From NCBI RefSeq assembly GCF_026127265.1, contig NZ_WWFG01000002.1, positions 2,690,144 to 2,722,143 of the forward strand: DNA of 32,000 nt, given 5' to 3'. Below, piece after piece: positions 16,646-32,000 of this stretch. Position 1 is the first letter of the stretch, and the number at the start of each line of letters is the position of its first letter. The notes under the pieces were generated by a model, which worked only from the letters and a program-made list of their open reading frames with translations, did not search any database and was not told the origin of the DNA. Both the position numbers and the translations under genes were made by a program. Origin of the DNA: Nostoc sp. KVJ3. Lineage in GTDB: Bacteria; Cyanobacteriota; Cyanobacteriia; Cyanobacteriales; Nostocaceae.

Positions 16646-16811
16646 TTAAATACGATATCTTCACAAATAGCGCATGAAAAGTCCTAATTTTTGCTGAGGC
16701 GATCGCTAATTCAACTCTATAACAATAGTAACAGTTAGTTGGAAGTTTTGAATTAGATTTCCATAAATCATCATCAAAGTTCCGTTTTACTATTTGAGGA
16801 TAGAAAGAATC

Positions 16812-17201
16812 ATGAAAAATAAAGTATTGTTTGGTGCTATATTTCTGACAACTTGGGTAGGAACATTAATTCCCGGTGCTTTAGCTGCCTCACCCTGTTC
16901 TGTAGGACAAAAGGCTGAGGTTCTTTGGAAGGAAAAATGGTATCCAGCAACGGTACTTAAGGTTAAGAATGATAATTGCTATATTACTTATGAAGGTTAT
17001 AGTAGTTCCTGGAATGAATGGGTTGGCACTGAACGCTTTCGGGCATCATTTGGAGTTGGAGATGCAGTGAGAATTTTGTGGAAAGGGAAATGGTATAAAG
17101 GGCAGGTTTTAGAAGTTAATAACGATCTTTATAAAATTACTTATGATGGCTACGATAGCTCTTGGGATGAGTGGGTTGAACCTTCTAGAGTAAGTAGATA
17201 G
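16812..17201 (+). CDS. secreted protein with two tandem Tudor/Agenet/SH3-like beta-barrel repeats
   Basis: The ATG at 16812 is preceded by GAGGA. Signal peptide MKNKVLFGAIFLTTWVGTLIPGALA/AS. The two units are GQKAEVLWKEKWYPATVLKVKNDNCYITYEGYSSSWNEWVGTERF and GDAVRILWKGKWYKGQVLEVNNDLYKITYDGYDSSWDEWVEPSRV. Confidence 0.75.
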   Translation: MKNKVLFGAIFLTTWVGTLIPGALAASPCSVGQKAEVLWKEKWYPATVLKVKNDNCYITYEGYSSSWNEWVGTERFRASFGVGDAVRILWKGKWYKGQVLEVNNDLYKITYDGYDSSWDEWVEPSRVSR

Positions 17202-17278
17202 AGAATATTTCGGTTTTATAAATTTAAGTTTAATACCAATTCTGTATGAAGATGCACATAATAATACCCCCCTGTAGT

Positions 17279-17463
17279 CCCCCCTTGGCAAGCTATGGTG
17301 TACACACAAGTCGAATCACCCCCCTTAATCCCCCCGATATATTGGGGGGAAACAAGAAATCTAGTTCCCTCCCCTTTATAAGGGGAGGGTTAGGGTGGGG
17401 TAAAGCCTCGGTTAATCAGCTATTTCAGACTTGTGTATACACCGTAGCCGATGCCTTGGGGGG
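17279..17463. mobile_element. MITE-like element (~185 bp) with ~35-bp imperfect terminal inverted repeats
   Basis: The left end is CCCCCCTTGGCAAGCTATGGTGTACACACAAGTC. The right end is GACTTGTGTATACACCGTAGCCGATGCCTTGGGGGG. Internally there is a CTCCCCTTTATAAGGGGAG hairpin and GGGTTAGGGTGGGG. It has no coding capacity, and the 75-aa ORF across it is an artefact. Confidence 0.7.
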
Positions 17464-17516
17464 ACGGCGATAGCCGGGGGGTGAATTATATGCAGCTTCA
17501 CAAATAAATGGTATAA

Positions 17517-17553
17517 GGGACGATTTCACTTGTTGGAGTCGTCCCTTAATTTT
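17517..17553 (+). terminator. hairpin plus T-tract (possible terminator of the 16812..17201 transcript, downstream of the MITE)
   Basis: GGGACGA (17517..17523) pairs with TCGTCCC (17539..17545), followed by TTAATTTTT. Confidence 0.4.
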
Positions 17554-17809
17554 TGAGATGTCAATTCTGTTTGAGTTGTAAGGAGTGAACTACTCCGCCG
17601 TAAGACGGACGGAGCTTCCCAATTCATCGGGAACTGCCTCAAAAACTCCATAGTTCTATTGGTCTGACATTCCCTCCAAGGGCAGGAGTCCTGGTTCCCA
17701 AGACCCAAATCTTTTTCTTGCAACATATACCTATTAGCTTGGTTTTCGCTTATGGCATTGATGGTCAAGACCAAATAATTCTATCAGAAAATTCTGGCGA
17801 TTCGTCATA

Positions 17810-17853
17810 CATCTGATATTTGTTTTTGCAAGAGCAAAAACAAATATCAGATG
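17810..17853. repeat. perfect 20-bp-stem hairpin
   Basis: CATCTGATATTTGTTTTTGC - AAGA - GCAAAAACAAATATCAGATG. Confidence 0.9.
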
Positions 17854-17930
17854 CAATCCTTATCCCCCGCTCCCTATCCCCACCTTATGAGTACATTGAA
17901 GGTGGGGACTTCCGCGACACGTTAAGTACG

Positions 17931-18060
17931 TATGCAAAAAGATTTATGTCATTGCGAGCGGAATGAAATGTAGCGTTCGCGCAGCGTCTCTAAGAGTTGC
18001 AATCCCAAGACCTTGGGATTGCTTCATTCGCAATAACAGATGTATATTTAATTTTGCATT
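17931..18060. repeat. nested SDR/MITE-like element
   Basis: TATGCAAAAAGATTTATGTCATTGCGAGCGGAATGAAATGTAGC...GGATTGCTTCATTCGCAATAACAGATGTATATTTAATTTTGCAT, with the same outer and inner arms as 10681..10830. Confidence 0.85.
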
Positions 18061-18193
18061 AATACTTATTGAATCGCCAAGCCGCCAAGAAAAGCAGGAA
18101 ATAAGTTTACAAATTATTATTTGCTCTCCATGAATTATTGAGAGACTGTAGACTGAGAAGCATAAGGGTAATCTCGTATATTTTGGCAGAGTT

Positions 18194-18583
18194 ATGGAGC
18201 CAGTATCACTGACAGCCGCTGCGATCGCAACTTTGGTAATCACCAAAGCCTTTGAAAAAACTGGTGAAATCTTGGGCGAAAACGTTTTAGAGCAAAGTGG
18301 TAAATTATTTTTACTGCTGAAGCGCAAAGCACCTAAGACGGCGAGTGCTATAGAACTGGCTCAAACACAACCGCTAAATTATGGACAAGCTTCTCTGGTT
18401 GAGCAGGTAGAAGAAGCAGCAAAAAAAGACCCTGAAATTGCTCAAGCTGTGGAAGCTATAGCGGATACTGTTAAATCTCAACCCTCTATTATTCAGAATT
18501 TTACGAACACAGTCGATAAAAATTATGGCGGGAATGTCGGGAATGTTGCTAATGACAACCGCAATCAAACTTTTAATTTCTGA
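18194..18583 (+). CDS. 129-aa N-terminal effector-like module ORF, in frame with the downstream NB-ARC gene and separated from it by a single TGA
   Basis: ATG at 18194. It starts with a hydrophobic helix (MEPVSLTAAAIATLVITKAF), continues with a charged helical region, and ends in an N/G/Q-rich tail (NFTNTVDKNYGGNVGNVANDNRNQTFNF). The stop TGA at 18581..18583 is followed by 26 sense codons in the same frame, up to the GTG at 18662. Confidence 0.6.
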   Translation: MEPVSLTAAAIATLVITKAFEKTGEILGENVLEQSGKLFLLLKRKAPKTASAIELAQTQPLNYGQASLVEQVEEAAKKDPEIAQAVEAIADTVKSQPSIIQNFTNTVDKNYGGNVGNVANDNRNQTFNF

Positions 18584-18661
18584 CTAAAGTCGTCCGAAGG
18601 GGAACGGGTAAAGTTAAATCCCCCGACTGGAACACCGCAAAATTTACCTCTGAGTGGGGTA

Positions 18662-21115
18662 GTGGAATTTGTTGGGCGTGAGGAAGAATTGCAAAAACTG
18701 CACCAACTTTTGCAGGATAATAAACAAGTAGCCATTGCTGCGATCGCTGGTATGGGTGGAGTTGGTAAAACAGAACTCGCCTTACAATATGCCATCAAAC
18801 GCCGCGAAACATATAACGGTGGGCTTTGCTGGTTGCTAGCAAAAAATGGGGATGTGGGCATTCAAGTTGTGCAGTTTGCCAGAACGCAGCTTGATTTAAA
18901 GCCGCCAGAAGATTTTGATTTACTCGCCCAAGTGCAATATTGTTGGCGGCGTTGGCGTGAGGGTGATGTGCTGCTAGTGCTGGATGATGTCAGCGACTAT
19001 GAGGAAGTCAAGCCTTATCTACCGTCGTCATCTTCTCGGTTTAAAGTGCTGATGACTACGCGCCAGAAGTTGGGACGCATGGCACAGTTATCTTTAGATG
19101 TGCTGCAACCAGAGGCGGCGCTGGAGTTATTAAAGTCTTTACTCAAAGAGACACCGGGGCGAATTGAAAAAGAATTAGCTTTAGCAAATCAGTTGTGTGA
19201 ATGGCTGGGATATTTACCTTTGGGTGTGGAATTAGTAGGGCGCTATCTGGCGCGGAAACAGGATTTATCCCTAGCAGAAATGTTGCGGCGGTTGGAGAAC
19301 AAGCGATTAGATGAGCGTTCCCTCTCTAAATCTAAGTCGGAAGCTGACATGACAGCACAACGAGGTGTGTTAGCCGCCTTTGAGTTGAGTTGGCAAGAAT
19401 TAGAGGACAATGATAAGCAATTGGGTTGTTTATTGAGTTTATTTGCTGCCGCACCTATACATTGGAAGTTGGTGGAACAGTGTTTACCAGATGAAGATGC
19501 CGAAGATTTAGAGGAAATTAGAGACGATAGCTTGCTGAATTTGCATTTACTCCAGCGCAAAGGTGAGGGAGTTTATCAATTACATCCACTGCTGCGCGAG
19601 TTTTTCCAATACAAGTGTACAGGTTTAGATAAGGTAGAGGAATTTAAGCGATCGCTTTGTCGGGTAATGGTAGCAGTTGCTAAAGATATTCCTGAAGACC
19701 CTACCCTTAAGCAAATCACTGCTGTTTCCCCCGCCATATCTCATATAGCTGAAATAGCAAAGAATCTCATTCAATACATCAGCAATAATAATTTACTTTA
19801 TCCTTTCGTTGGTAACGCTCGTTTTTACAGTGGTCAAGGGTTTTATGATAAAGCTTTACCTTGGTATCAGGATTGTCTAAAAGTTATCAAAGAACGCTTG
19901 GGAGAAGAACATCCATCTGTCGCCACTAGCCTCAACAACCTAGCGGGACTCTACGACTCCCAAGGCAGATACAGCGAAGCCGAACCCCTTTACATCCAAG
20001 CTTTAGCACTCAGGCGCAAGCTGCTGGGTGAAGAACATCAAGATGTCGGACAAAGCCTCAATAACCTAGCGTTACTCTACTACTCCCAAGGCAAATACAG
20101 CGAAGCTGAACCCCTTTACATCCAAGCTTTGGCACTCGCGCGTCAACTACTGGGTGATGAACATCGATTTGTCGCCACTAGCCTCAACAACCTAGCGGGA
20201 CTCTACAACTCCCAAGGCAGATACAGCGAAGCCGAACCCCTTTACATCCAAGCTTTAGCACTCAGGCGCAAGCTGCTGGAAGAAGAACATCCATCTGTCG
20301 CCTCTAGCCTCAACAACCTAGCGCATCTCTACGGTTCCCAAGGGAGATACAGCGAAGCCGAACCCCTTTTAATCCAAGCTTTAGCACTCAGGCGCAAGCT
20401 GCTAGGAGAAGAACATCCAGATGTCGGACAAAGCCTCAACAACCTAGCGTATCTCTACAACTCCCAAGGGAGATACAGCGAAGCCGAACCCCTTTACATC
20501 CAAGCTTTAGCACTCTGGCGCAAGCTGTTGGGAGAAGAACATCCATCTGTCGCCCAAAGCCTCAACAACCTAGCGTTACTCTACGGTTCCCAAGGGAGAT
20601 ACAGCGAAGCCGAACCCCTTTACATCCAAGCTTTAGCACTCTGTCGCAAGCTGCTGGGAGAAGAACATCCAGATGTCGCCTCTAGCCTCAACAACCTAGC
20701 GTATCTCTACAACTCCCAAGGGAGATACAGCGAAGCCGAACCCCTTTACATCCAAGCTTTAGCACTCTGGCGCAAGCTGTTGGGAGAAGAACATCCATCT
20801 GTCGCCACTAGCCTCAACAACCTAGCGTTACTCTATAAATCCCAAGGCAGATACAGCGAAGCTGAACCCCTTTACATCCAAGCTTTAGCACTCAGGCGCA
20901 AGCTGCTGGGAGAAGAACATCCAGATGTCGCCCAAAGCCTCAACAACCTGGCGTTACTCTACAAATCCCAAGGCAAATACAGCGAAGCCGAACCCCTTTA
21001 CATCCAAGCTTTGGATATTTGTGAGCGACGGTTAGGCGCAAATCATCCTAATACTGTTACTGTGCGTCAAAATTTAGCAGATTTGCGCGATCGCATCGCC
21101 TCAAATCAAGAATAG
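18662..21115 (+). CDS. NLR-like STAND ATPase: NB-ARC domain plus ~10 kinesin-light-chain-type 42-aa TPR repeats
   Basis: Walker A GMGGVGKT (18749..18772), Walker B LLVLDDV, MTTR, and a GLPL-like GYLPLGVELVG. Nine near-identical EEHPxVAxSLNNLAxLYxSQGRYSEAEPLYIQALALxRKLLG units follow. The only start before the P-loop is the GTG at 18662, with a poor SD; there is no ATG. Confidence 0.9.
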   Translation: MEFVGREEELQKLHQLLQDNKQVAIAAIAGMGGVGKTELALQYAIKRRETYNGGLCWLLAKNGDVGIQVVQFARTQLDLKPPEDFDLLAQVQYCWRRWREGDVLLVLDDVSDYEEVKPYLPSSSSRFKVLMTTRQKLGRMAQLSLDVLQPEAALELLKSLLKETPGRIEKELALANQLCEWLGYLPLGVELVGRYLARKQDLSLAEMLRRLENKRLDERSLSKSKSEADMTAQRGVLAAFELSWQELEDNDKQLGCLLSLFAAAPIHWKLVEQCLPDEDAEDLEEIRDDSLLNLHLLQRKGEGVYQLHPLLREFFQYKCTGLDKVEEFKRSLCRVMVAVAKDIPEDPTLKQITAVSPAISHIAEIAKNLIQYISNNNLLYPFVGNARFYSGQGFYDKALPWYQDCLKVIKERLGEEHPSVATSLNNLAGLYDSQGRYSEAEPLYIQALALRRKLLGEEHQDVGQSLNNLALLYYSQGKYSEAEPLYIQALALARQLLGDEHRFVATSLNNLAGLYNSQGRYSEAEPLYIQALALRRKLLEEEHPSVASSLNNLAHLYGSQGRYSEAEPLLIQALALRRKLLGEEHPDVGQSLNNLAYLYNSQGRYSEAEPLYIQALALWRKLLGEEHPSVAQSLNNLALLYGSQGRYSEAEPLYIQALALCRKLLGEEHPDVASSLNNLAYLYNSQGRYSEAEPLYIQALALWRKLLGEEHPSVATSLNNLALLYKSQGRYSEAEPLYIQALALRRKLLGEEHPDVAQSLNNLALLYKSQGKYSEAEPLYIQALDICERRLGANHPNTVTVRQNLADLRDRIASNQE
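19904..21012 (+). repeat. 126-bp tandem coding repeats (TPR units) with very high nucleotide identity
   Basis: The period of 126 nt is visible directly: CATCTGTCGCCACTAGCCTCAACAACC at ~19913 recurs 126 nt later and onwards. Long blocks are shared identically between units, for example AGATACAGCGAAGCCGAACCCCTTTACATCCAAGCTTTAGCACTC. Confidence 0.9.
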
Positions 21116-21165
21116 GCAAGTTTTGTGCAAAGCGTACCATGTTAAAAGTTAGATTTGCGATCGCC

Positions 21166-21333
21166 TAAACTCGGAGTTTCCTGTTCTAAACTCGGAGTTT
21201 TCTGTTCCAAACGAGAACGTTCCTGTTTTAAGTGAGAACGTTTTGGCTTCAAGTGAGAATGTTCCTGTTTTAAGTGAGAACATTTCTATTCCAAGTGAAA
21301 ATGTTTTAGTTTCAAGTTCGACGTTTCGTGTTC
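21166..21333. repeat. eight degenerate tandem copies of a 20-22 bp unit
   Basis: TAAACTCGGAGTTTCCTGTTC / TAAACTCGGAGTTTTCTGTTC / CAAACGAGAACGTTCCTGTTT / TAAGTGAGAACGTTTTGGCTTC / AAGTGAGAATGTTCCTGTTTT / AAGTGAGAACATTTCTATTCC / AAGTGAAAATGTTTTAGTTTC / AAGTTCGACGTTTCGTGTTC. Confidence 0.9.
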
Positions 21334-21436: not shown

Positions 21437-21742
21437 TTAGATATCCTGATTCTCGTGAAAAATATCTTCAAAATCTCGATATCCACTCAAAACCCTCTCC
21501 ACTTGGATACCATTTTTAACTGGTCTGTAAAAAATGACTTGATTATCCACTGGCAAACTACGTAAATTGGGTGCTAGTTCCTCACGGCTACGCCCAAGTT
21601 CAGGAAAATCTGCTAATAAAAGACACTTTTCTTCAAAAGCATCAAGAAAACGACTAGCTGCACCTAAATTCAACCGACTTATATAGTTTTTTATATCTTT
21701 TAAGTCTTGCTTGGCAGCAGCACTCAAAATATATCTGCTCAT
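21437..21742 (-). CDS. parE: type II toxin, ParE/RelE superfamily
   Basis: 101 aa: MSRYILSAAAKQDLKDIKNYI...FPELGRSREELAPNLRSLPVDNQVIFYRPVKNGIQVERVLSGYRDF. The ATG lies 2 nt after the parD stop (TAAGGATG). Confidence 0.85.
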   Translation of the reverse strand: MSRYILSAAAKQDLKDIKNYISRLNLGAASRFLDAFEEKCLLLADFPELGRSREELAPNLRSLPVDNQVIFYRPVKNGIQVERVLSGYRDFEDIFHENQDI

Positions 21743-21744
21743 CC

Positions 21745-22005
21745 TTAACTCTGCTGTGCTTGTTGAATTTCTTCTCGTAATTCTCTTAATACTTCTTCCC
21801 CATCAAAAACATCACCGCGATCTGATTGTTCAATTCCAATAGCAATTTCTTTGCGGAGTTCTTCTAATCGCACTAAACGTTTCGTCTCCCATTCCTCTAG
21901 CAATTGCAAGGCAGCGCAAACTACTTCAGAAGCAGATGAATATCTACCTTCCTTGACTGTTGATTGGATAAACTGCTCTAGTTCTGGAGTTAAAGATATA
22001 TTCAT
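21745..22005 (-). CDS. parD: type II antitoxin, ParD family (ribbon-helix-helix)
   Basis: 86 aa: MNISLTPELEQFIQSTVKEGRYSSASEVVCAALQLLEE.... It sits immediately upstream of parE. Confidence 0.85.
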   Translation of the reverse strand: MNISLTPELEQFIQSTVKEGRYSSASEVVCAALQLLEEWETKRLVRLEELRKEIAIGIEQSDRGDVFDGEEVLRELREEIQQAQQS

Positions 22006-22108
22006 AACATGGAAGACAATATTTTAATCAACATGACTACATTTTACTATAGCGATCGCTCGACTTAAATTGTAGAATCATGAGCAATTTTTCACAAAAT
22101 CTCGATAC

Positions 22109-22381
22109 TTACAAAGTATCCATCGGCTCAAGAGTCGGCTCCTTGTTGAGGTCAATATTATCAATTACTGGTAGAGAATATCCCAGCTTTAACCCAAGCA
22201 AAATCCAGTCTTCCAGCGTTGGGCGTAATTCATCTTCACACTCGCGCAAAGTTGATGCAAAGGCTATCACTCCTTTGCAAACAGGAATCCTACCTGTAAA
22301 TGTATCATCTTCGAGCTTGTCATAAATTGCCTGAGCAACTGCTTGGTCAACATAATCGCTCAGAATAAACCTTATGGCCAT
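22109..22381 (-). CDS. HicB-like (UPF0150-fold) antitoxin-type protein, with no hicA partner seen
   Basis: The likely start is MAIRFILSDYVDQAVAQAIYDKLEDDTFTGRIPVCKGVIAFASTLRECEDELRPTLEDWILLGLKLGYSLPVI, a pattern typical of cyanobacterial HicB-family annotations. The ORF-track start at 22426 would run deep into the Uma2 gene. Confidence 0.5.
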   Translation of the reverse strand: MAIRFILSDYVDQAVAQAIYDKLEDDTFTGRIPVCKGVIAFASTLRECEDELRPTLEDWILLGLKLGYSLPVIDNIDLNKEPTLEPMDTL

Positions 22382-22922
22382 GACTGTTGAAGAATACCTC
22401 CAAATGGAGGAACAGAGCAATATCAAGCATGAATATATAGACGGTTACATCTACGCAATGGCTGAAGCGCTTGAAGCACACGTCACAATTGCTCTTAACC
22501 TTGCCGCTCTCCTCCGTAATCATGTGCGCGGCTCTGGTTGCCGTGTTTACATCACTGACATGAAAGCCCAAATTGAATCTCTGAATCGCTTTTATTATCC
22601 CGATGTGATGGTTACTTGCGATCAACGAGATCGAGAAACGCCAGGTTATAAAAGATTTCCCTGTTTAATTGTCGAAGTTTTATCTAATTCTACAGAAGCC
22701 TTTGACCGCGGTGACAAATTCGCCGATTATCAAACACTGGAAAGTCTGCAAGAGTATATATTAATTAATACTAAACGTCAGCGAGTCGAGTGTTTTCGAC
22801 GCAATGAACAAGGGTTCTGGGTTTTGCAATCTTACACAGCAGAACATCAATCATTTCGACTCAACAGCGTGGATTTTGAGGAAACAATGGCAGCACTTTA
22901 CGAAGATATAGTTTTTGAATAA
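22374..22922 (+). CDS. Uma2-family (DUF820) PD-(D/E)xK-type putative endonuclease
   Basis: MAMTVEEYLQMEEQSNIKHEYIDGYIYAMA...YYPDVMVTC...CLIVEVLSNSTEAFDRGDKFADYQ...LQEYILI. The start may instead be the ATG at 22380. Confidence 0.85.
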   Translation: MAMTVEEYLQMEEQSNIKHEYIDGYIYAMAEALEAHVTIALNLAALLRNHVRGSGCRVYITDMKAQIESLNRFYYPDVMVTCDQRDRETPGYKRFPCLIVEVLSNSTEAFDRGDKFADYQTLESLQEYILINTKRQRVECFRRNEQGFWVLQSYTAEHQSFRLNSVDFEETMAALYEDIVFE

Positions 22923-22948: not shown

Positions 22949-23117
22949 TGTCATTGCGAATGGAGCGTAAAGCCTTCGGCATAGCTTCGCTTAACGCGGT
23001 AGCGTCTCGTAGAGATAGCGAAATGAAGCATAAGTCCTTCGGACACGCTTCGCGAACGCGGGGGCTAGGATTGCAACTCTTGGAGACGCTGTTCGCGTTC
23101 GCTTCGCTTGCAATGAC
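22949..23117. repeat. composite/nested SDR element
   Basis: TGTCATTGCGAATGGAGCG...GAAATGAAGCATAAGTCCTTCGGACACGCTTCGCGAACGC...GCTTCGCTTGCAATGAC. The 68-aa ORF 22948..23154 is read out of this repeat. Confidence 0.85.
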
Positions 23118-23236
23118 TGTAATTAATTCTGCATGGTTACTTAATACCGAATAAGAGGATTTTACCCAAAGTCTGACTAAGCCTTATTTTCATCAAGAAT
23201 TGCTATAAGAGTACTCCAAGTAAAAAAATGCCCAAT

Positions 23237-23300
23237 TGTCATTGCGAGCGAAGCGAAGCAATCCCAAGGGCTGTGATTGCTTCGCTTCGCTCGCAATGAC
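23237..23300. repeat. SDR hairpin with perfect 26-bp arms
   Basis: GTCATTGCGAGCGAAGCGAAGCAATC (23238..23263), an 11-nt loop, then GATTGCTTCGCTTCGCTCGCAATGAC (23275..23300). Confidence 0.95.
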
Positions 23301-23422: not shown

Positions 23423-24160
23423 TCAAATAACCTTGTGGCGTTGCGTCAATGTCAATTGTGATTTGAGCTTACCATCTTCCATCTCAACGATGCGATCGGC
23501 AATGTCTAGGATGCGGTTATCGTGAGTAACCATCAAGATAGTACAGCTTTGTTCTTTTGCCAGTTTTTGCATGAGATTGACTACATCTCGTCCCGATTGG
23601 CTGTCAAGGGCGGCGGTGGGTTCATCGGCCAGGATTATTTGAGGATGACTTACTAAGGCGCGAGCGATCGCTACTCTTTGTTTTTGTCCCCCAGACAGTT
23701 TATCAGGATAGTAATGCAAATGATTTCCTAATCCTACCTGTTCTAGCATCTGGACTGACCTCGCTAGCATCTTTTTTAACCCAAGATGTTTGTGCAATTC
23801 CAAAGCCATTTTGACGTTTTGGAGTGCTGTTAAACTACCATGCAAGTTATGTGATTGGAAAATATAACCGTTACGGCATCGCGCTTGCACTAATTGTTCA
23901 GGACTAGCACTACAAAGTTCTTGCCCTAACACTCGCAAACTACCCGATTGGACAGAACGCAATGCACCTACTAAGGTCAGCAAGGTAGTCTTTCCAGAAC
24001 CAGAAGGCCCGGTCATAATAATAATTTCACCGACGTTAATCTCTAAGTCGATGTTAGATAATACTTGCTTACGAAGTGAACTTTCACCAAAGTGGTGGTC
24101 GAGATTCTGGATGGAGATGACGGGAAGCATATTTGAGCATTGGGCATTGAGCATTCCCAT
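23423..24160 (-). CDS. devA: DevA-family ABC exporter ATP-binding subunit
   Basis: Walker A GPSGSGKTT, signature LSGGQKQRVAIARAL, Walker B ILADEPTAALD, H-loop VTHD. It is last in the devB-devC-devA order. An alternative start is MLPVISIQ at 24130. Confidence 0.9.
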   Translation of the reverse strand: MGMLNAQCSNMLPVISIQNLDHHFGESSLRKQVLSNIDLEINVGEIIIMTGPSGSGKTTLLTLVGALRSVQSGSLRVLGQELCSASPEQLVQARCRNGYIFQSHNLHGSLTALQNVKMALELHKHLGLKKMLARSVQMLEQVGLGNHLHYYPDKLSGGQKQRVAIARALVSHPQIILADEPTAALDSQSGRDVVNLMQKLAKEQSCTILMVTHDNRILDIADRIVEMEDGKLKSQLTLTQRHKVI

Positions 24161-24162
24161 TT

Positions 24163-25332
24163 TTAAAACATATCAGCAGGGTCAGTGGCTTGGAGTTTGC
24201 GCGTGGCGATCGCACCGGAAATTGTACACATAATGATAGTTAGTACTAATACTTGCAATGCCCGAATCGCAGTCATGTACATGGGTAAATTTGTGACGCT
24301 GCGAGTCAGTTGGTAAAGTGCTAAGGACACTCCCAATCCGGGGAAGAAGCCCAATGCTGCCAATATCAACGATTCTTCAAGCACCACACCTAGCAGGTAG
24401 TAATTGCGATATCCCATTGCTTTGAAGGTGGCATATTCTCGAACGTGGGCATTAACATCGGTAGAAAGAACTTGATAGACGATAATTACGCCTACCACAA
24501 AGCCCATTGATACACCCAGGCTGAAAATAAACCCAATTGGGGAATTTGTTCTCCAGAAGTTATTTTCAAATTCAATAAATTCGGCGTGGGTTAAGACTTT
24601 GACATCATCTCTCAGGTAGGCTTTGAGCATTGCTGCTACTTTTTTCGGGTCATACCCTGGTTTAAGAACAATTAAACCTAGACTGACGCTGCTAGATTGT
24701 CGCCCAAATAGCCGCAAAAAGTTTTGATCGCTGGTAATCAGATTGCCATCAGAACCAAAGGAAGCCCCGACTTGAAATAAGCCACTAATGGTAATTGTGC
24801 GCCGTTCGATTTCGGTAGTTAGGGTTTTGCCTTGGTCAATTTGAGCGATCGCTTTTTGATAATCTCCTCTTGCGCCACGGTCGAACAAGACGGTATCTGG
24901 TAGCTTAATTGTCTGCAATTGCTGGTTAACATCTGGTAAGTCAAAGGCTGGCTGATCTGGGTTGAAGCCGATAACTAACACCCCTGTTTCACGGTGTGTT
25001 TGGGGATTTTTCCAGATTGTGTTGTTGAAATACATTGCTTGGGCCGACTTCACCCCTGGGATATCCATTGCTTGGTAAAGTCGCCGCCGAGAAAATGTAG
25101 ACAAGCTTGGCAAATTACGGGCTTGAGGACTGGTTAAAACAATGTCTGCTTGCAAACTGCGATGTAGTCTAGTGTTACTGTCATACAGCGCAGTTTGAAA
25201 GCCCAACTGCATGAACATGAGAAGATCCGCAAAGGCAATGCCTGACAGTGCCACCAAAAGACGGCTTTTTTCATGATTCAGTTGCAGCCATCCTAAAGGG
25301 GTTCGTCGTTGCAGTTGTTTGATCAATCCCAT
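24163..25332 (-). CDS. devC: DevC-family ABC exporter permease (FtsX-like)
   Basis: RTPLGWLQLNHEKSRLLVALSGIAFADLLMFMQLGF is a typical DevC N-terminus. There are four TM segments with a large periplasmic loop. I prefer the ATG at 25330..25332. The ORF-track GTG at 25395 adds 21 aa that are read from a GGGGACAAG/AATTCAC repeat tract. Confidence 0.88.
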   Translation of the reverse strand: MGLIKQLQRRTPLGWLQLNHEKSRLLVALSGIAFADLLMFMQLGFQTALYDSNTRLHRSLQADIVLTSPQARNLPSLSTFSRRRLYQAMDIPGVKSAQAMYFNNTIWKNPQTHRETGVLVIGFNPDQPAFDLPDVNQQLQTIKLPDTVLFDRGARGDYQKAIAQIDQGKTLTTEIERRTITISGLFQVGASFGSDGNLITSDQNFLRLFGRQSSSVSLGLIVLKPGYDPKKVAAMLKAYLRDDVKVLTHAEFIEFENNFWRTNSPIGFIFSLGVSMGFVVGVIIVYQVLSTDVNAHVREYATFKAMGYRNYYLLGVVLEESLILAALGFFPGLGVSLALYQLTRSVTNLPMYMTAIRALQVLVLTIIMCTISGAIATRKLQATDPADMF

Positions 25333-25398
25333 GATAAGAAGTGGGGAGATGAGGGGGACAAGGGGGACAAGGAGAATAATCAATGCCCAATTCACAAT

Positions 25399-26598
25399 TC
25401 ACAATTCAATTACTGCCTTAACTTGCATATTGGTTAAGGTGGCAGCTTTTTGGCTGGAGGCTTCATCTAGTCGGATATGGACTTCTACTACTCTGTTGTC
25501 GATATTGCTGACGGGATCTGTGTTAATTACATTCTGCCGTCGCACTTGCAAGCTTTTGCGATCTACGATTCCCTGCAATTCAATGGGGAGGTAATCACCA
25601 AATACTCGCACTTGCTGACCGGAATGGACTTTGCCGATGTCGCTTTCGTAGACTTCGGCTATTACATACATCTGGCTGGTTTGTCCGATATCAGCAATGC
25701 CATCATTTGATACCAATTCGCCAGGATGGGTATGAATCTCAAATACCTGGCCATTTTGGGGCGATCGCACTTGGGCCTGTTTGAGATTGACTTTTGCTAA
25801 ATTCATGGCTGCTACAGCCCGATTGACTTCTGCTTTGGCTGCTTCTACATCCACTCCTCGCACTTCAGCAATTTCATCAAGGGTTGCTGTGGCTTCTTTT
25901 ACCTGCTGTTGGCTAGTTGATTGGCTACGATTTAACTGTGCTTGCGCTTCTTGGAGATTTTTCTGGGCAGTTTCCCAGTTTAAACGCTTACTATCCCGTT
26001 GGGAGGCGGAGATTGCACCCTGTTGATATAGTTGCTGATAGCGTTCGTCTTCTACTTGGGCGTTTTGCACTTCGGCTTGGAATCGCTCAATTGTGGCTGC
26101 TTGGGCATTAGTATTACCTTGACCTTCTGCTTCTAAACGAGCGATCGCAGCTTTTTGGGCGGCAATTACACCGCGTTTAGCCCCTGCTTGGGTACGATTT
26201 AGGTTTGCCTGGGCGACTTTCACTTGTTGCTGTGCCTCTTCTAATTCTGCTTGCAAGCGATCGCAGCTATTTAAAATTGCAATTACCTGTCCTGCTTTTA
26301 CCCTATCCCCCTCCTTCACTAACAACTTTTCTACCCGACTTCCTTCAGCAGATACCGCAGCAGAGAGTTTAATTACCTTTCCCTGTGGTTCAATCCGCCC
26401 TAAAGCTGTTACAGTTTTTAACTGTGGCAATTGTGTTGCTGGCACTTGTGTCTCTGAATTTGCATAATTTTGCCAGCGTTTTAATATATAAAAACTTATT
26501 CCGCCAACCAATAAAGATGCAATTATACCTATAGCAACGGATTGACGCAGAATAAACTTAGGGAACGTTCTATACCCTAGCTTTGAGTTTCGCACCAT
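25399..26598 (-). CDS. devB: DevB-family (HlyD-type) membrane fusion protein
   Basis: N-terminal TM anchor, a lipoyl-like motif (VKEGDRVKAGQVIAIL), a long Ala/Gln-rich coiled-coil hairpin, and a beta-barrel C-terminus. It is followed by devC and devA. Confidence 0.9.
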   Translation of the reverse strand: MVRNSKLGYRTFPKFILRQSVAIGIIASLLVGGISFYILKRWQNYANSETQVPATQLPQLKTVTALGRIEPQGKVIKLSAAVSAEGSRVEKLLVKEGDRVKAGQVIAILNSCDRLQAELEEAQQQVKVAQANLNRTQAGAKRGVIAAQKAAIARLEAEGQGNTNAQAATIERFQAEVQNAQVEDERYQQLYQQGAISASQRDSKRLNWETAQKNLQEAQAQLNRSQSTSQQQVKEATATLDEIAEVRGVDVEAAKAEVNRAVAAMNLAKVNLKQAQVRSPQNGQVFEIHTHPGELVSNDGIADIGQTSQMYVIAEVYESDIGKVHSGQQVRVFGDYLPIELQGIVDRKSLQVRRQNVINTDPVSNIDNRVVEVHIRLDEASSQKAATLTNMQVKAVIEL

Positions 26599-27194: not shown

Positions 27195-28436
27195 TTATCG
27201 CCAGTGTTGGGGGATGTTCAAATTTTCCGGTAGGATTGTTGTGCGATCGCCAATAGCCTCTTCAATCTGCTGTAATTCTAGGTTTTCACATCCACTCAAG
27301 TTTGCCCTAGCAAGGTTGGCTTCTTGGAAGTTAGCGTCTTGCAGATTAGCTGTACTGAGTAACACACCTTCTAAGTTGGCTCCAGCAAGTTTTGCTCTTT
27401 GCAGGTTACTGCCAATCAGGTTTGCATCTTGGAGGTTGCTACCCTCTAAGTTTATTTCAAAGAGGTTGGCATCACAAAGGATTGCTCCTTCTAGATTGGC
27501 ATCACAAAGAATTGCCTCTGTCAAGTTAGCATCACAAAGGATTGCCCCTTCTAAGTTGGCATCATAAAGAATTGCCTTTGAGAGGTTTGCTTTTCTGAGG
27601 ACTACTCCTTGCAAATTGGCTTCTGGAAGGATTGCCTTTGAGAGATTTGCTTCATAGAAGATTGATCCACAAAGATCGGTTACTGATAAGTCTGCCTCTG
27701 AGAGATTTGCTCGTGTGAAATTAACCCATTGTAAGTTAGCTCCTACGAGGATTGCCCTAGAGAGGTTAGCTTCCGTTAAGTCTGCATTACTGAGGTCTGT
27801 ATTGCGTAAATCCAGTTTCTGATTTACCGGATCTTTATATGAATCGCGTCGTCCAATAACAGTTAAGGCTGTTTGAATATCTGTAGGGAGTTTTGATGAC
27901 TCTTGTAAATTGTTCTCATATTCATGATTCATCGGGGAATTCTCACGGATAAAAGCAGCGAGAATTTCCATAATTGTCCAATGGTCTTTGTGAGAATCCT
28001 TAGCAATTCGTTCTAAAGCATAAATGGCGGCAAATCGCGTTTCAATCTTTTCATTTCCCAGTTGTTCAATTGCTTTACAAAAACGTTCGGGAGCAATTTC
28101 TTCTGGAGTTGCTTGGGTGTTATTGATGCCAGTTCCGATATTCTTATCCCAAGCTAGTGTCCCAGCTAGGAGTTGCGTTAACAAACTCTGATTCTCATCT
28201 AGTGAAAGTTTGGAAGTATAGTAAGCATTAGTAATTAATGCCAATCCTCCAATGATGATGGCAAGAGTTGTTAATGCTTGATTAATATATTCTATTTTTT
28301 CTTGAGTTGAAAATCCTTCAATACTTTCAAATAACGAGAAAATGAGAGTTACTGATAAAATAAATATAATTGAAATAAATACTAACAAAGTCGTGATTCC
28401 ATTTGTCTTTATGAAAGATATGTCATAAGTCTTCAT
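27195..28436 (-). CDS. membrane-anchored pentapeptide-repeat protein (paralog 1)
   Basis: Two N-terminal TM helices. Conserved module ERFCKAIEQLGNEKIETRFAAIYALERIAKDSHKDHWTIMEILAAFIRENSP, then TDIQTALTVIGRR. About 36 A(D/N)LxX pentads follow, and the C-terminus is GDRTTILPENLNIPQHW. Confidence 0.9.
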   Translation of the reverse strand: MKTYDISFIKTNGITTLLVFISIIFILSVTLIFSLFESIEGFSTQEKIEYINQALTTLAIIIGGLALITNAYYTSKLSLDENQSLLTQLLAGTLAWDKNIGTGINNTQATPEEIAPERFCKAIEQLGNEKIETRFAAIYALERIAKDSHKDHWTIMEILAAFIRENSPMNHEYENNLQESSKLPTDIQTALTVIGRRDSYKDPVNQKLDLRNTDLSNADLTEANLSRAILVGANLQWVNFTRANLSEADLSVTDLCGSIFYEANLSKAILPEANLQGVVLRKANLSKAILYDANLEGAILCDANLTEAILCDANLEGAILCDANLFEINLEGSNLQDANLIGSNLQRAKLAGANLEGVLLSTANLQDANFQEANLARANLSGCENLELQQIEEAIGDRTTILPENLNIPQHWR

Positions 28437-28736
28437 ATCTGACTCCTTACGGAAATAAATTTAGGTTGATTTTAAGAGTATCTGTAAATATCTGATAGCG
28501 TACAAATACGGAAGTACTTGATAGGTACTTGAATCTACTTAATAGAAATCATCTATGAAATCCATAAGAATTTATTTTTCAAATATGTTGTGAACTAAGG
28601 CAATACGGTTCAGATAAGACTAAAATTCTCATCTAGCGGATAGTGCAGAGAAGTACAATTTCGCGTCTCTACAGCTTTATGGTTCTCCCAAAAATCCTTA
28701 ACCCAAGCGTATTGCTTTATAAAGTTGAAGAGCTTT

Positions 28737-29200
28737 TTAACAAACATCTAAGCACATCTGACTAAATTGGAAATCGCGGTAAGCAATTCCTCGTTCCGTT
28801 AGCATCGCTTGCGCTAGCTCTGTATCTAACACGCTATCTTCCAAAAGCAGGAAACGGAGGACATTCATTAGTCGCTCTCCTGTTGAGGATTAGGGGCTGG
28901 AGGTAGAGCGCCAACAGGAGGCTGATTAATCACTGCCCAAAACAGGCCAACACCCTTAATCGAATCGACAAAATCATGGTAATCCACTGGCTTAACAACA
29001 TAAGCATTTACCCCTAACTCATAGCATCGAACTAAATCCGGCGATATGGCGAAATGGTGCGCGCAAGCTGTTCGCTAATGTCACTGATTAATGCCGCATA
29101 CCCTTCAACGCTCCCCTGTTTATTAAATTGGGGAACACAAATAGCATGAATGTAGCGTGTACCACCATCTTTGGAGTTAAAAGGTTCAAGTTTGAGTATT
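28737..29200 (-). pseudogene. debris of two-component signalling genes (PAS fragment, receiver C-terminal fragment, receiver N-terminal fragment)
   Basis: My minus-strand translations give three fragments. 29041..~29195: LKLEPFNSKDGGTRYIHAICVPQFNKQGSVEGYAALISDISEQ, which is PAS-like. 28868..~29038: DLVRCYELGVNAYVVKPVDYHDFVDSIKGVGLFWAVINQPP...ESD*, the alpha4-beta5-alpha5 part of a CheY-like receiver. 28737..28868: MNVLRFLLLEDSVLDTELAQAMLTERG..., a receiver N-terminus that stops after 43 aa. The frames differ and none is a complete domain. Confidence 0.55.
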
Positions 29201-29218
29201 TAAGGGTGAAACTTTAGC

Positions 29219-30511
29219 TTACCAACATTCGGGGAATTGAAGATTTTCCGGTAGGATGGTTGTGCGATCGCCTTTTGCTAATTCAATCTGGTGTTGTTCT
29301 AGGTTTTTGACTCCCCTGAGTATTGCCCCTTGCAGGTTAGCTTCCCTGATGATTGCCTCTTGTAAGTTGGCTTCCGTGAGGTCTGCTCCCTGAAGATTGG
29401 CTCCCATAAGAAATGCCTTTTGTAAATTGGCTTTCTCAAAGAATGCCTCTCGTAAATTGGCTCTCATGAGAAATACTTCTTCTAGGTTGGCTTTCTCAAG
29501 GAATACCTCTCGTAAATTGCTTCCATTAAGGTTTGCCCCTCGCAAGTTGCTTTGCCTAAGGTTTGCTCCTTGCAGATTGGACTCTCTGAGAAATACCTCT
29601 TGCAGATTAGCTAGTATAAGGTCTGCTCCTTGCAGGTTGGCGAACTCAAGGTTTGCCTTTCGCAGATTGATGCCAATTAGTTTTGCTCCTTCAAGGTTAG
29701 CTTGCCTGAGGTTTGCCTCTTGCAGGTTAGCACCAAAGATATCTGCCCCTTGGAGATTGGCTTTGGTGAGTTCTGCCCCTTGTAGGTTGGCTTCCCTGAG
29801 GTCTGCCTTTTGCAATTTGGCTTCCCTAAGGTCTGCTCCTCTAATATCGATATTACATAAATCTAGTCTCTGATTTTCTGGGTCATTCTCAGACTTGCGC
29901 CGTCCAATTACGGTAAGGGCTGCTTGAATATCCGTCTGAAGTTTTGGTTCTTGCTCTATCTCCTTTGGTTTTTGATAATTCCAAGTATTGACTATTATTA
30001 ATGAGTCTGAATTTCCTGTATTTTTCTCGGAAAAATCCATCAAAGGTGCATTCTCTCGCACAAAAGCCGTCAGGACTTCCATGATTGTCCAGTGATCATC
30101 TTTGGAATCTTTGGCGATTCGTTCTAGAGTATAAATTGCACCTAATCGCACTTCAATCTTTTCATTCCCAAGCTGTTCAATCGCCTTCGCAAAGCGTTCT
30201 GTGATTTGCTTGTCTTGTGCTGCTTCTGCATTTCTTAAAGCAGCTTCAGCACTTTTATTGGCAGCCTCAGCACTTTTATCCATAGCTTCCGCACGTTTGG
30301 CTGCATAGTAAGCATTGATAAACACTGCAATTGCGCCGAAAATTGTCGCAGTAGTTTTTAGCGCTTCCGTTTCATTTTTTACTCGTTCATCTATTAGAGG
30401 TATATGCCAGACAAAGCAACCGACTATAACGGATGAAATAATAAACAATACAATAAATAAAATTAGAACTATAAACGAATTTCTGGGTGTGTCTGTCTTG
30501 TTATCAGACAT
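29219..30511 (-). CDS. membrane-anchored pentapeptide-repeat protein (paralog 2)
   Basis: It has the same architecture as paralog 1: two TM helices, an Ala/Glu/Lys coiled segment, ERFAKAIEQLGNEKIEVRLGAIYTLERIAKDSKDDHWTIMEVLTAFVRENAP, TDIQAALTVIGRR, about 38 pentads, and GDRTTILPENLQFPECW. Confidence 0.9.
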   Translation of the reverse strand: MSDNKTDTPRNSFIVLILFIVLFIISSVIVGCFVWHIPLIDERVKNETEALKTTATIFGAIAVFINAYYAAKRAEAMDKSAEAANKSAEAALRNAEAAQDKQITERFAKAIEQLGNEKIEVRLGAIYTLERIAKDSKDDHWTIMEVLTAFVRENAPLMDFSEKNTGNSDSLIIVNTWNYQKPKEIEQEPKLQTDIQAALTVIGRRKSENDPENQRLDLCNIDIRGADLREAKLQKADLREANLQGAELTKANLQGADIFGANLQEANLRQANLEGAKLIGINLRKANLEFANLQGADLILANLQEVFLRESNLQGANLRQSNLRGANLNGSNLREVFLEKANLEEVFLMRANLREAFFEKANLQKAFLMGANLQGADLTEANLQEAIIREANLQGAILRGVKNLEQHQIELAKGDRTTILPENLQFPECW

Positions 30512-30623
30512 AAATTAAATTTCTTCCTCATCTCCCAAATTACTACGGAGACTTTTGGTAAAAACTATAGCATTAAGTGAAAACGGTAGAATACGCCCAA
30601 ATAACTAATGATGCTGTGATAAC

Positions 30624-32000
30624 TTAACCTGATTGTCGCCAATCTGTCGGTGCTTCGATATAATCAGGTAGACGAGTGGTGCGATCGCCAAGTGCCTTTC
30701 TAATCTGGTGCAACTCTAAGTTTTTAGCCCCTGTTAAAATTGTCCCTTCCAGTTTGACATCACTGAGGTCAGCTTCTAAAAAGTTAGCTCCCATCAGGTT
30801 AGCCTGAGTCAGGTTAGCTTGATAAAAGGTCGCTCTATGCAGGTTAGCTCCAATCAGGTTAGCCTGATGCAGGTCAGCTTCCGTTAAACTGGCTTCTGAA
30901 AGATTGGCAAAATAGATTTCTGTTTGGTGGAGTTTGGCTGCATTCAAGTTAGCCCCAGAAAGGTTTGCTCCATTTAGGTTAGCCCCTGAGAGGTTAGCAC
31001 CAATCAAACCCGCTAGATGGAGGTTGGCTTTCCCCAGTTTTGCACCTTGCAAGTTAGCTAAAAACAGCTTTGCTCCAGACAGGTTGGCGACTTTCAAGGT
31101 CGCTTGTTGCAAGTTAGCTTTATAAAGGTTTGCTCCTTGGAGATTAGCTATACGCAGACTTGCTCCAGAGAGATTAGCTGAACGCAGGTTCGCCCCAGAG
31201 AGATTAGCCCGGTTGAGATTAGCCCAACACAGATTAGCTCCACAGAGGCTAGCGTTTAGTAACTTGGTTTCATAGAGAATAGACCTGACGAGTTTAGCGC
31301 CATTAAGGTCAGCCTCGCTCAAGTCGGCTCCCCGCAGGTCAGCCCCACTCAGGTCAGAACCACGTAAATCCGCTTGTTGCAGGTTAACTCCTAGTAGGTC
31401 TGCTCGTCTGATGTCGATATGACGTAAATCAAGTTTCTGGTCTTTTGGGTCTTCCAGTAAATTCCGCCTACCGATGACAGTTAGGGCTGCTTGAATATCG
31501 GTGCGGATTATTGGCAATTCTTCATTGAGGTTTTGCTCCAATGGCTGTGTCGGACGCGACCCACCTCTACGCCTACCTGAGTAAGCATCTGGTGAATATT
31601 CCGGCTTTTGTTGCTCTATCTTCATCGGCTGGATAGGTGCATTTTCACGCACAAAGGCAGTGACGATTTCCATGATTGTCCAGTGTTCTTTCGGAAAATC
31701 CTGAGCAACTCTTTCTAATGCATAAATTGCACCTGTTCGGGTTTCAATTTTATCATGACCAAGTTGGGCAATTGCCCCCATAAAACGTTCTGAAGTTAAT
31801 CTGTCTTGATTCAGTTTGGCATTCTGAATGCCAATTTCGAGGTTTTTCTCGGCTGCGATCGCATTTTTATGCATCGCCTGGGCCCGCTTTGCTGCATAAT
31901 ATGTATTAAAGATTGCTGCCGATGCCAGAAAAACTATTGCAGTAGTTGTTAAAGCTTGGTTTCTATACTGAATTTTTTCCTGAATTGACAATTCTTTAAT
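30624..32000 (-). CDS. membrane-anchored pentapeptide-repeat protein (paralog 3), 5' end probably outside window
   Basis: It has the same module (ERFMGAIAQLGHDKIETRTGAIYALERVAQDFPKEHWTIMEIVTAFVRENAP, TDIQAALTVIGRR, about 48 pentads, GDRTTRLPDYIEAPTDW). The frame stays open to the window edge (..IKE before the TTG used by the ORF track). Only the second TM helix is present, so the first TM is expected upstream. Confidence 0.85.
   Translation of the reverse strand: MKELSIQEKIQYRNQALTTTAIVFLASAAIFNTYYAAKRAQAMHKNAIAAEKNLEIGIQNAKLNQDRLTSERFMGAIAQLGHDKIETRTGAIYALERVAQDFPKEHWTIMEIVTAFVRENAPIQPMKIEQQKPEYSPDAYSGRRRGGSRPTQPLEQNLNEELPIIRTDIQAALTVIGRRNLLEDPKDQKLDLRHIDIRRADLLGVNLQQADLRGSDLSGADLRGADLSEADLNGAKLVRSILYETKLLNASLCGANLCWANLNRANLSGANLRSANLSGASLRIANLQGANLYKANLQQATLKVANLSGAKLFLANLQGAKLGKANLHLAGLIGANLSGANLNGANLSGANLNAAKLHQTEIYFANLSEASLTEADLHQANLIGANLHRATFYQANLTQANLMGANFLEADLSDVKLEGTILTGAKNLELHQIRKALGDRTTRLPDYIEAPTDWRQSG

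Follow-up and report, generated by a model that had tools for sequence, protein, structure and literature searches.

An in-frame UGA and a downstream RNA pseudoknot between a Bell-type effector and an NLR in Nostoc: a candidate programmed readthrough system of cyanobacteria

Bell/BASS/NLR systems of bacteria are described as two genes with their own starts, in which the motif that ends a small Bell protein is duplicated on the adjacent NLR (Dyrka et al., 2020). The locus considered here lies in a stretch of 32,000 nucleotides (nt) from Nostoc sp. KVJ3 (contig NZ_WWFG01000002.1, positions 2,690,144 to 2,722,143, forward strand), hereafter the window, and consists of a short open reading frame (ORF1) followed by an NLR-like reading frame (ORF2). 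It shares with the described pairs a protein of ~130 amino acids, in which a hydrophobic helix at the N-terminus and a helical bundle are followed by a C-terminal motif of ~22 amino acids, as well as a collinear NB-ARC-TPR gene downstream. Unlike those pairs, the locus has one copy of the motif, no conserved NLR start, an in-frame UGA-C between the two parts, and a pseudoknot downstream of it. The screen that yielded the pairs demanded duplication of the motif on the NLR (Dyrka et al., 2020; bioRxiv 10.1101/2020.01.06.895854), and neither that study nor its 2024 follow-up mentions stop codons or readthrough.

Comparison of the locus with its relatives suggests, with a probability of roughly two in three, that the UGA is subject to programmed readthrough, which would yield an abundant Bell-BASS effector and a rare Bell-BASS-NLR fusion able to seed it. 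Among its relatives the locus displays a conserved UGA-C, a conserved frame, a single motif copy, selection on the downstream frame, the absence of a conserved start, and a pseudoknot; readthrough itself, and its efficiency, are predicted from these features. The components, namely Bell/BASS NLR systems and pseudoknot-assisted readthrough, are known, while their combination would be new, as would a conserved chromosomal readthrough signal of the stop-spacer-pseudoknot type in bacteria. A full-text literature search found no report that combines Bell/BASS NLR systems with readthrough, and we know of no bacterial readthrough signal with the retroviral design of a stop, an 8-nt spacer, and a pseudoknot. 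A first-pass annotation, made from the letters of the window, had offered four explanations for the split locus, one of them a readthrough-controlled system making a free module and a rare fusion; it is this one that the comparative data favor. The pseudoknot and the use of the same junction with other modules go beyond that annotation.

A conserved UGA between effector and sensor

In the window, ORF1 runs from the ATG at 18194 to the TGA at 18581-18583 and encodes 129 amino acids, a protein identical to an annotated entry of Nostoc sp. KVJ3. ORF2 (18662..21115, plus strand) is identified from Pfam matches, tandem repeats, and substitution patterns as an NB-ARC-TPR STAND NTPase of the NLR-like kind. 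It combines an NB-ARC domain (~18680-19354, plus strand; PF00931, E = 7e-19), in which the sequence GMGGVGKT at 18749-18772 (plus strand) forms the Walker A motif, with a C-terminal sensor array of ~10 TPR_12/TPR_10 repeats (~19781-21097, plus strand; TPR_12, E = 9e-171), and is thus the adjacent, collinear NLR expected of a Bell/BASS-NLR system. A tandem repeat in this array (19899-21012) has a period of 126 nt, 8.8 copies, and 88% matches; its units are near-identical, with differences at a handful of positions, a pattern described for NLR repeats that diversify rapidly.

The two frames are joined by a linker of 26 codons, LKSSEGERVKLNPPTGTPQNLPLSGV (18584..18661, plus strand), which would be translated only upon readthrough of the UGA. 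All 26 are sense codons in the frame of ORF1 and lead to V-EFVGREEEL and Walker A, so that the first-pass description of one frame interrupted only by this TGA and continuing into the P-loop holds at the same coordinates. In the canonical pairs the equivalent of the linker, IPxNLPxSG..FVGR, is part of the NLR protein. No terminator is found on the plus strand between ORF1 and the NLR. Frameshifting was considered and rejected: a slippery site is lacking, and neither of the other frames stays open after the stop, the +1 frame closing at once and the −1 frame after 31 codons.

The stop was followed through 81 loci, comprising the window and 80 fetched loci from Nostocales, Coleofasciculaceae, Microcoleus, Symploca, and others; in a pattern scan of metagenomes, about half of the matches were chance coding matches (SGTGKVKS) and were discarded. 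The homologues of ORF1 end in TGA at 65 loci and in TAG or TAA at 8 each, and at 63 of the 81 the TGA is followed by at least 50, and mostly hundreds of, open codons in the same frame. The base after the stop is C at 60 of these 63 loci, as in the window (C at 18584, next codon CUA), and the codon after it is CTA at 47, CTG at 9, and CTC at 2, and at none a start codon. For comparison, TGA ends 23% and TGA-C 3.1% of 259 long open reading frames in the same loci. The same-frame stop arrangement is far beyond chance. C at position +4 after UGA, and UGA-CUA as a whole, are known leaky contexts (PMC7026636), which agrees with the weak-terminator context pointed out by the first-pass annotation.

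The frame downstream of the stop is equally constant. In all 50 loci that have a P-loop after the TGA, the P-loop lies in frame 0, at distances of 144, 150, 153, 156, 159, 165, or 180 nt from the stop, all multiples of three; insertions and deletions in the linker are all 3n although they lie upstream of any candidate NLR start. The alignment of orthologs that had been proposed as a check therefore finds stop and frame conserved, and the arrangement named as contrary evidence, with an NLR in an unrelated frame and with its own start, occurs in the canonical TAA/TAG pairs only. The downstream frames are intact, up to 1229 codons long, and the ratio of nonsynonymous to synonymous polymorphism (pN/pS) is 0.25 over the NB-ARC codons 27-100 after the stop and 0.38 over linker codons 14-26. 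Judged from these ratios, the downstream NLR is under purifying selection and functional.

A single in-frame stop within an otherwise continuous frame might also signal a sequencing or assembly error, or a fused NLR that has recently become a pseudogene, as the first-pass annotation had considered. Both ideas are refuted by the recurrence of the same TGA in more than 60 independent isolate and metagenome assemblies, in which ORF1 is 40-94% identical. The small stand-alone protein is moreover the norm in more than 200 clusters, and the frame after it is under purifying selection, which leaves error or decay with a negligible probability. The relatives of ORF1 form 211 clusters, of which the best 120 are all stand-alone proteins of 102-163 amino acids. 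An exhaustive profile search returned 463 representative clusters; 5 of the best 150 representatives exceed 200 amino acids, and of these five P0221 and P0259 have recognizable partners, neither being joined to NB-ARC-TPR. A search with junction peptides found no natural fusion with a sense codon at the position of the UGA, so the amino acid that would be inserted there cannot be deduced; a look-up of the exact KVJ3 protein gave no record. One locus, L036 (5001-5440), has a premature TAA at Bell codon 85, with the tail, the downstream TGA, the pseudoknot core, and the NLR frame intact, and is probably a recent pseudogene of the effector part.

Canonical relatives act as natural controls. Twelve relatives with a TAA or TAG stop are canonical pairs of Bell-BASS and BASS-NLR genes. 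Their NLRs begin at an ATG of their own, without any fixed frame relative to the Bell gene, and repeat the Bell tail at the N-terminus. The tail is duplicated on the NLR in L018, L051, L059, L060, L063, L067, L068, L070, L074, and L097; the two copies read TIENWKGINIKGGSPTINSPKFTF and MTTEDWQGINFKDSNPTINNPTFYI in L051, and KLADKIGQVVMPGG and KIADKIGVFAAS in L067. The tails of these pairs are BASS7 and BASS5 of Table S2 in Dyrka et al. (2020). Many UGA-type loci have the identical BASS7 tail, in a single copy directly before the UGA, with no room for a second. Across the 81 loci TGA is never the stop of a canonical pair, and the motif is never duplicated at a UGA-type locus. The window follows the latter pattern: only 26 codons separate the stop from the NTPase core, the motif is not duplicated on the NLR N-terminus, as had been noticed in the first pass, and no second tail-motif copy or second Bell-like gene is present anywhere in the window.

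The assignment of ORF1 itself draws on the family alignment, an AlphaFold2 (AF2) model, and the canonical Bell-BASS kin. Its Bell-type helical domain (18194..18514, plus strand) begins M-E-P-VSLTAAAIATLVIT and has a hydrophobic N-terminal helix, MEPVSLTAAAIATLVIT, with an acidic residue at position 2, followed by five further helices. The features by which Bell proteins are recognized, that is, a short chain (~120-140 amino acids), a hydrophobic N-terminal helix, an acidic residue at position 2-3, and an all-helical bundle, are thus all present in ORF1, and the hydrophobic helix, acidic position, and bundle are kept family-wide. The domain is followed by an N/G-rich C-terminal tail, DKNYGGNVGNVANDNRNQTFNF (18515..18580, plus strand), a BASS7-like putative amyloid signaling motif in single copy. 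In the family alignment the tail NYGGNVGNVANDNRNQTFNF falls on the BASS7 columns of the ENWQGINIKGGTNTISGNTFNF tails and has the same TFNF ending; it is not among the published paired motifs (Table S2; Dyrka et al., 2020). Kin of ORF1 that are 57-66% identical end in ENWQGINIKGGTNTISGNTFNF or KLADKIGQVVMPGGTGNI, the Bell-side BASS7 and BASS5 entries of that table. By analogy with those systems, the tail is a putative amyloid-forming motif, and an NLR-borne copy would template the Bell copy. The first-pass picture of a Bell/HeLo-like executioner with an amyloid-type tail beside an NLR is in keeping with these tails, and its outline of the module, a hydrophobic N-terminal helix, a helical body, and an N/G/Q-rich tail, is borne out by the sequence and the AF2 model. 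That model has six helices at a predicted local distance difference test (pLDDT) score of 61.6 and a disordered tail (pLDDT 31-37). ORF1 matches no model in Pfam, NCBIfam, or PADLOC, and it has no significant relative in the PDB by sequence profile search or by a Foldseek search with the low-confidence AF2 model. A weak sigma-70-like promoter match (18153..18182, plus strand; 9 of 12 positions) lies upstream of ORF1; it has low evidential value, the number of such sites around ORF1 being no higher than in shuffled sequence.

An RNA pseudoknot downstream of the stop codon

Directly after the UGA, an 8-nt spacer, CUAAAGUC (18584..18591, plus strand; family consensus CUANAGYC), separates the stop from an H-type RNA pseudoknot of 31 nt (18592..18622, plus strand). 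The pseudoknot is supported by RNAalifold for its first helix, by covariation, and by frozen synonymous sites. In the window, the first helix (S1) pairs 18592-18596 with 18605-18609 over 5 base pairs (bp), and the second (S2) pairs 18600-18603 with 18619-18622 over 4 bp, leaving an A-rich loop 3 of 9 nt (18610-18618). The spacer is highly conserved: the stretch from the stop to the first helix is gap-free in 51 sequences, with most spacer columns conserved to at least 90%. Applied to 42 distinct sequences, RNAalifold independently called a 5-bp hairpin that starts 8 nt past the UGA; the second helix arises between the loop of this hairpin and a downstream UCCC, which makes the structure an H-type pseudoknot.

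Taken together, S1 and S2 are paired to 98% in the 51 sequences, compared with 17-50% when the partners are slid by 1-3 columns, and compensatory changes are seen at 4 of the 9 pairs. In S1 these are pair 24-36 (CG 27, UG 11, UA 10, GC 2) and pair 22-38 (CG 45, UA 4), and in S2 pair 30-52 (GC 31, GU 7, CG 5, AU 4) and pair 31-51 (GC 45, GU 4, AU 2). None of 500 shuffles reached the observed covariation score or fraction paired. In pair 30-52 the two partners, 22 nt apart, are a non-synonymous and a synonymous site, and L025 keeps both helices despite an extra loop base that changes the encoded peptide. Because G-U pairs are frequent, the pseudoknot is assigned to the sense RNA. Selection on the coding sequence points the same way: over codons 1-13 after the stop, pS is 0.14, as opposed to 0.40-0.58 in the flanks, with a pN/pS of 1.09; third positions are almost invariant, and the codons CTA, TCG, and CGG, which make up 9-14% of their synonymous sets in the background, are fixed. 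This indicates that these codons are constrained at the level of the RNA. The 20-mer at the core of the pseudoknot occurs once in the window, with 0 expected by chance, and once each, at the same position, in all 23 loci with an exact match. An Rfam scan by E-value of 18400-18800 gave no matching family, and its one hit, to a piece of RNase P, was spurious.

The combination of an in-frame UGA and a conserved RNA structure from 8 nt downstream raises the prospect that the codon specifies selenocysteine, in which case the structure would be a selenocysteine insertion sequence (SECIS) element read by SelB and the product would always be a selenocysteine-containing fusion. Bacterial SECIS hairpins do lie roughly 8 nt past their UGA. 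The structure found here is, however, an H-type pseudoknot and not an extended hairpin with a GU-containing apical loop, and it is absent in several UGA-type clades. Neither a SECIS hairpin nor a homologue with cysteine at the UGA position is found, the site falls in a disordered linker rather than a redox center, and the stand-alone 129-residue family, together with the canonical pairs, shows that termination is the ancestral and normal end of the protein. No suppressor or selenocysteine tRNA is present in the window, and the selenocysteine-decoding trait is not reported in the cyanobacteria examined in the literature. Selenocysteine decoding is accordingly regarded as highly improbable.

The UGA junction is a general module boundary. 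With its pseudoknot, it separates a DUF676/PGAP1-like esterase domain from a NACHT NTPase in L088, Bell from a further module in L081, and Bell from an NB-ARC-DUF7779-phycobilisome-like protein in L093. At L088 (216-1553, minus strand) and L089 (metagenome JGI12316), TGA-C, the 8-nt spacer, and the pseudoknot stand between the esterase-like domain and NACHT; the esterase-like domain has a THSLGG sequence and a weak Pfam match (E ~1e-3), and neither a Bell domain nor an amyloid-like tail is present. At L093 (4669-6654, minus strand) the TPR array is replaced by a C-terminal phycobilisome-protein (globin-like) domain (PF00502, E = 2e-36). Where the UGA-C junction has no pseudoknot, the module that follows is a membrane or PPC protein or, at L065, a NACHT-type NTPase; at L057, CHASE2 comes after a Bell frame that ends in TGA-G.

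Such reuse invites the explanation that the junction is mainly a recombination cassette, a patch of homology through which effector and sensor modules are shuffled among paralogues, the stop being incidental to expression. The frozen synonymous sites would suit it, as would the joining of several BASS-type Bell tails, and once of an esterase-like domain, to NB-ARC-TPR, other NB-ARC, NACHT, and further modules. Homology patches, however, yield neither compensatory pair changes nor strand-specific pairing that tolerates G-U, and the choice of TGA-C, the frame, and the translation of the NLR are left unexplained. As a full account recombination is quite improbable; the idea is compatible with readthrough rather than an alternative to it. 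A broader and speculative proposal, which we consider unlikely, is that the UGA, spacer, and pseudoknot form a mobile, modular recoding cassette of filamentous cyanobacteria. It would join interchangeable death effectors (Bell-BASS of several types, the esterase-like domain) to interchangeable sensors (NB-ARC-TPR, other NB-ARC types, NACHT), with readthrough efficiency as a regulated or sensed input. Stabilization of the pseudoknot by a ligand could then raise readthrough, as could a phage or stress that disturbs RF2, tRNA pools, or the accuracy of termination, and the fidelity of translation termination would feed directly into an immune decision.

Readthrough weighed against independent initiation

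Under programmed readthrough, ORF1 and the NLR would be one recoded gene, translated as a single mRNA from the ATG at 18194. The majority of ribosomes would halt at the weak UGA-C (18581) and release the 129-residue Bell-type pro-toxin with its BASS7-like motif. A minority would decode the UGA with a near-cognate tRNA, probably that for tryptophan, aided by the CUA context and by the H-type pseudoknot 8 nt on, and would enter the NB-ARC-TPR frame to give a Bell-BASS-NLR fusion of ~973 amino acids. Binding of a ligand by the TPR array and oligomerization of NB-ARC would then cluster the BASS segments, which could nucleate an amyloid fold; this fold would template the pool of free Bell-BASS, release the membrane-attacking Bell helix, and cause cell death in abortive infection or allorecognition. 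Amyloid templating and membrane attack are proposed by analogy with Bell/BASS systems and with fungal HET-S/NWD2. One motif copy would serve as both seed and substrate, and the stop would set a low ratio of sensor to effector while fixing the identity of the motif. In Anabaena, stop-codon readthrough is measurable and goes up when translational control is perturbed, which makes regulation of readthrough conceivable here.

The alternative is that of two ordinary operon genes, in which the UGA terminates translation for good and the NLR has an independent start, at the GTG at 18662 or at another TTG, GTG, or non-canonical codon. The pseudoknot would then be a translational-coupling or repressor element of the NLR initiation region, and the NLR, lacking the motif, would act on Bell in some other way or not at all. 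The unusual gene pair put forward in the first pass lives on in this form; it is the main rival to readthrough, and we hold it to be fairly unlikely. As the first pass had reported, no in-frame ATG lies between the stop and Walker A in the window. Its statement that a GTG is the only start is correct upstream of the NTPase core (codon 27 after the stop, 18662), and TTG occurs further on at codons 36 and 43, both past FVGRE. Gene callers do annotate NLR starts of this kind. Strong Shine-Dalgarno sequences are often missing in cyanobacteria, and pseudoknots in bacterial initiation regions are known regulators, both of which count for independent initiation.

Independent initiation nevertheless leaves much unexplained. 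It does not account for TGA-C at 60 of 63 in-frame loci against a background of 3.1%, nor for a frame that is always 0 with 3n indels upstream of the putative starts, nor for the use of TAA or TAG by all canonical pairs in which the NLR has its own ATG. Linker codons 14-26 lie upstream of the starts and yet show amino-acid-level constraint. There is no ATG, GTG, or TTG before the FVGR motif in 12 of the 50 loci, and in L064 none before Walker A either. The supposed start also differs between close orthologs: at the locus of Nostoc ATCC 53789, which is syntenic and 94% identical, the NLR is called from a TTG at codon 21, which is TTA in the window, and the GTG at codon 27 of the window is GAG there. 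Because the NLR is under selection, has no conserved start, and lies in frame with a weak stop in a frame that is never broken, the family bears the signature of readthrough. The criteria known from murine leukemia virus (MuLV) have their counterparts here in a leaky stop in a conserved context, a selected zero-frame reading frame without a conserved start, and a covariation-supported pseudoknot ~8 nt downstream.

Several observations weigh against readthrough, or against parts of the proposed mechanism. The evidence for it is comparative throughout. The GTG at 18662 sits one codon before EFVGRE, and some ATG, GTG, or TTG occurs between the stop and FVGR in 38 of the 50 loci. The pseudoknot is also less uniform than the stop: in a clade of nine loci a 9-nt deletion has removed its 3′ arms, and it is missing altogether from the non-NLR classes, the in-frame UGA-C being kept in both cases; no alternative conserved structure with covariation is found in the 'short' class or the non-NLR classes. 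Conversely, L097 (2861-3420) is a canonical BASS7 pair, in which Bell ends in TAA and the NLR starts at its own ATG 4 nt later with its own BASS7 copy, and this NLR still has the whole pseudoknot, which no stop precedes, as independent initiation would allow; L051 has the 3′ half only. Two explanations are possible: a recent derivation of L097, or a second function of the pseudoknot. As for the covariation, the two measures least inflated by shared ancestry are only moderate: 1 of 500 shuffles attained the observed value for 'further pair types', and 52 of 500 did so for 'pairs changed on both sides'. The fold energy of the window junction as a single sequence is no better than that of shuffles (z = +0.96), a kind of folding that cannot show a pseudoknot. 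Family relationships suggest that ORF1 is a Bell protein, the AF2 model being weak and a PDB match lacking. Finally, amyloid seeding is not the whole story, because the cassette of L088 follows an esterase-like domain that has no motif.

Surroundings of the locus and comparison with known systems

The NLR is followed in the window by a small toxin-antitoxin and defense cluster (21437-22922) with ParE/ParD (21437-22005, minus strand), a UPF0150/HicB-like gene (22109-22426, minus strand), and a Uma2-family endonuclease (22374-22922, plus strand); the syntenic locus of Nostoc ATCC 53789 (L104) has HicAB and PIN/MazE-type modules in its place. Immediately upstream, 16794-17201 encodes a small, secreted-looking protein with two Agenet/Tudor-knot-like modules, whose synteny with the Bell-NLR locus is kept in ATCC 53789. 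The space upstream of ORF1 measures ~990 bp in the window and ~300 bp in ATCC 53789. Many small dispersed hairpin repeats (GTCATTGCGAGCGAAGCGAAGCAATC... and its complement) fill the intergenic regions 17200-18190, 21150-21230, and 22950-23300, and a 21-nt tandem repeat is present in three copies at 21165-21227. Further downstream, three consecutive paralogous pentapeptide-repeat proteins of 412-454 amino acids (27195-31991, minus strand) adjoin a DevBCA-like ABC/FtsX/HlyD exporter (23423-26598).

If confirmed, the system would represent a conserved gene family of bacterial chromosomes that uses UGA together with a dedicated downstream pseudoknot. It would also be a new build of NLR amyloid signaling, in which one gene makes both a rare nucleator and an abundant substrate, and in which translation, and not the co-evolution of two genes, determines motif identity and stoichiometry. 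This would explain the 'orphan' Bell proteins of cyanobacteria in screens for duplicated motifs and the NLRs that seem to have no proper start. For annotation, it bears on downstream NLRs, whose starts are at present placed at arbitrary GTG or TTG codons. The system is compact, and reporters would allow a direct test.

Among described systems, the proposed logic is shared with fungal HET-S/NWD2 and HELLP/PNT1, where an NLR, on oligomerizing, seeds a short amyloid motif, and this in turn converts a helical domain that forms pores. The fungal systems consist of two separate genes and involve no recoding, and the activity of the cyanobacterial motif is putative. True Bell-NLR fusions have the architecture predicted for the readthrough product, with Bell N-terminal to the NLR; their parts are joined by a sense codon, and no free Bell protein is made. 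Bacterial selenoprotein genes likewise have an in-frame UGA closely followed by a conserved RNA structure, which is a SECIS hairpin in their case and here a pseudoknot, at a linker site without cysteine homologues.

Viruses and eukaryotes offer well-documented examples of programmed stop-codon readthrough, but few are known from bacteria; a review of the field gives only Q-beta A1 and the levansucrase of B. subtilis (PMC7026636). A1 of coliphage Q-beta is made by UGA readthrough of the coat gene in bacterial translation, which yields a minor extended and a major short form (PMC7026636, Table 1). It is a phage gene without a known requirement for a downstream pseudoknot, whereas the junction described here belongs to a chromosomal family that spans cyanobacterial orders and has a dedicated RNA structure. 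In design the junction resembles MuLV gag-pol, which shares a leaky stop, a conserved 8-nt spacer, and a compact H-type pseudoknot (PMC7026636), and which makes much of a short product and little of a fusion extended at the C-terminus, as is predicted here. The stop of MuLV, a virus of eukaryotes, is UAG and its release factor eRF1, whereas the present junction has UGA and RF2 on a bacterial chromosome. The cyanobacterial pseudoknot is the smaller of the two, with 31 nt, helices of 5 and 4 bp, and an A-rich loop 3 of 9 nt, and the two signals share their arrangement without any relationship in sequence.

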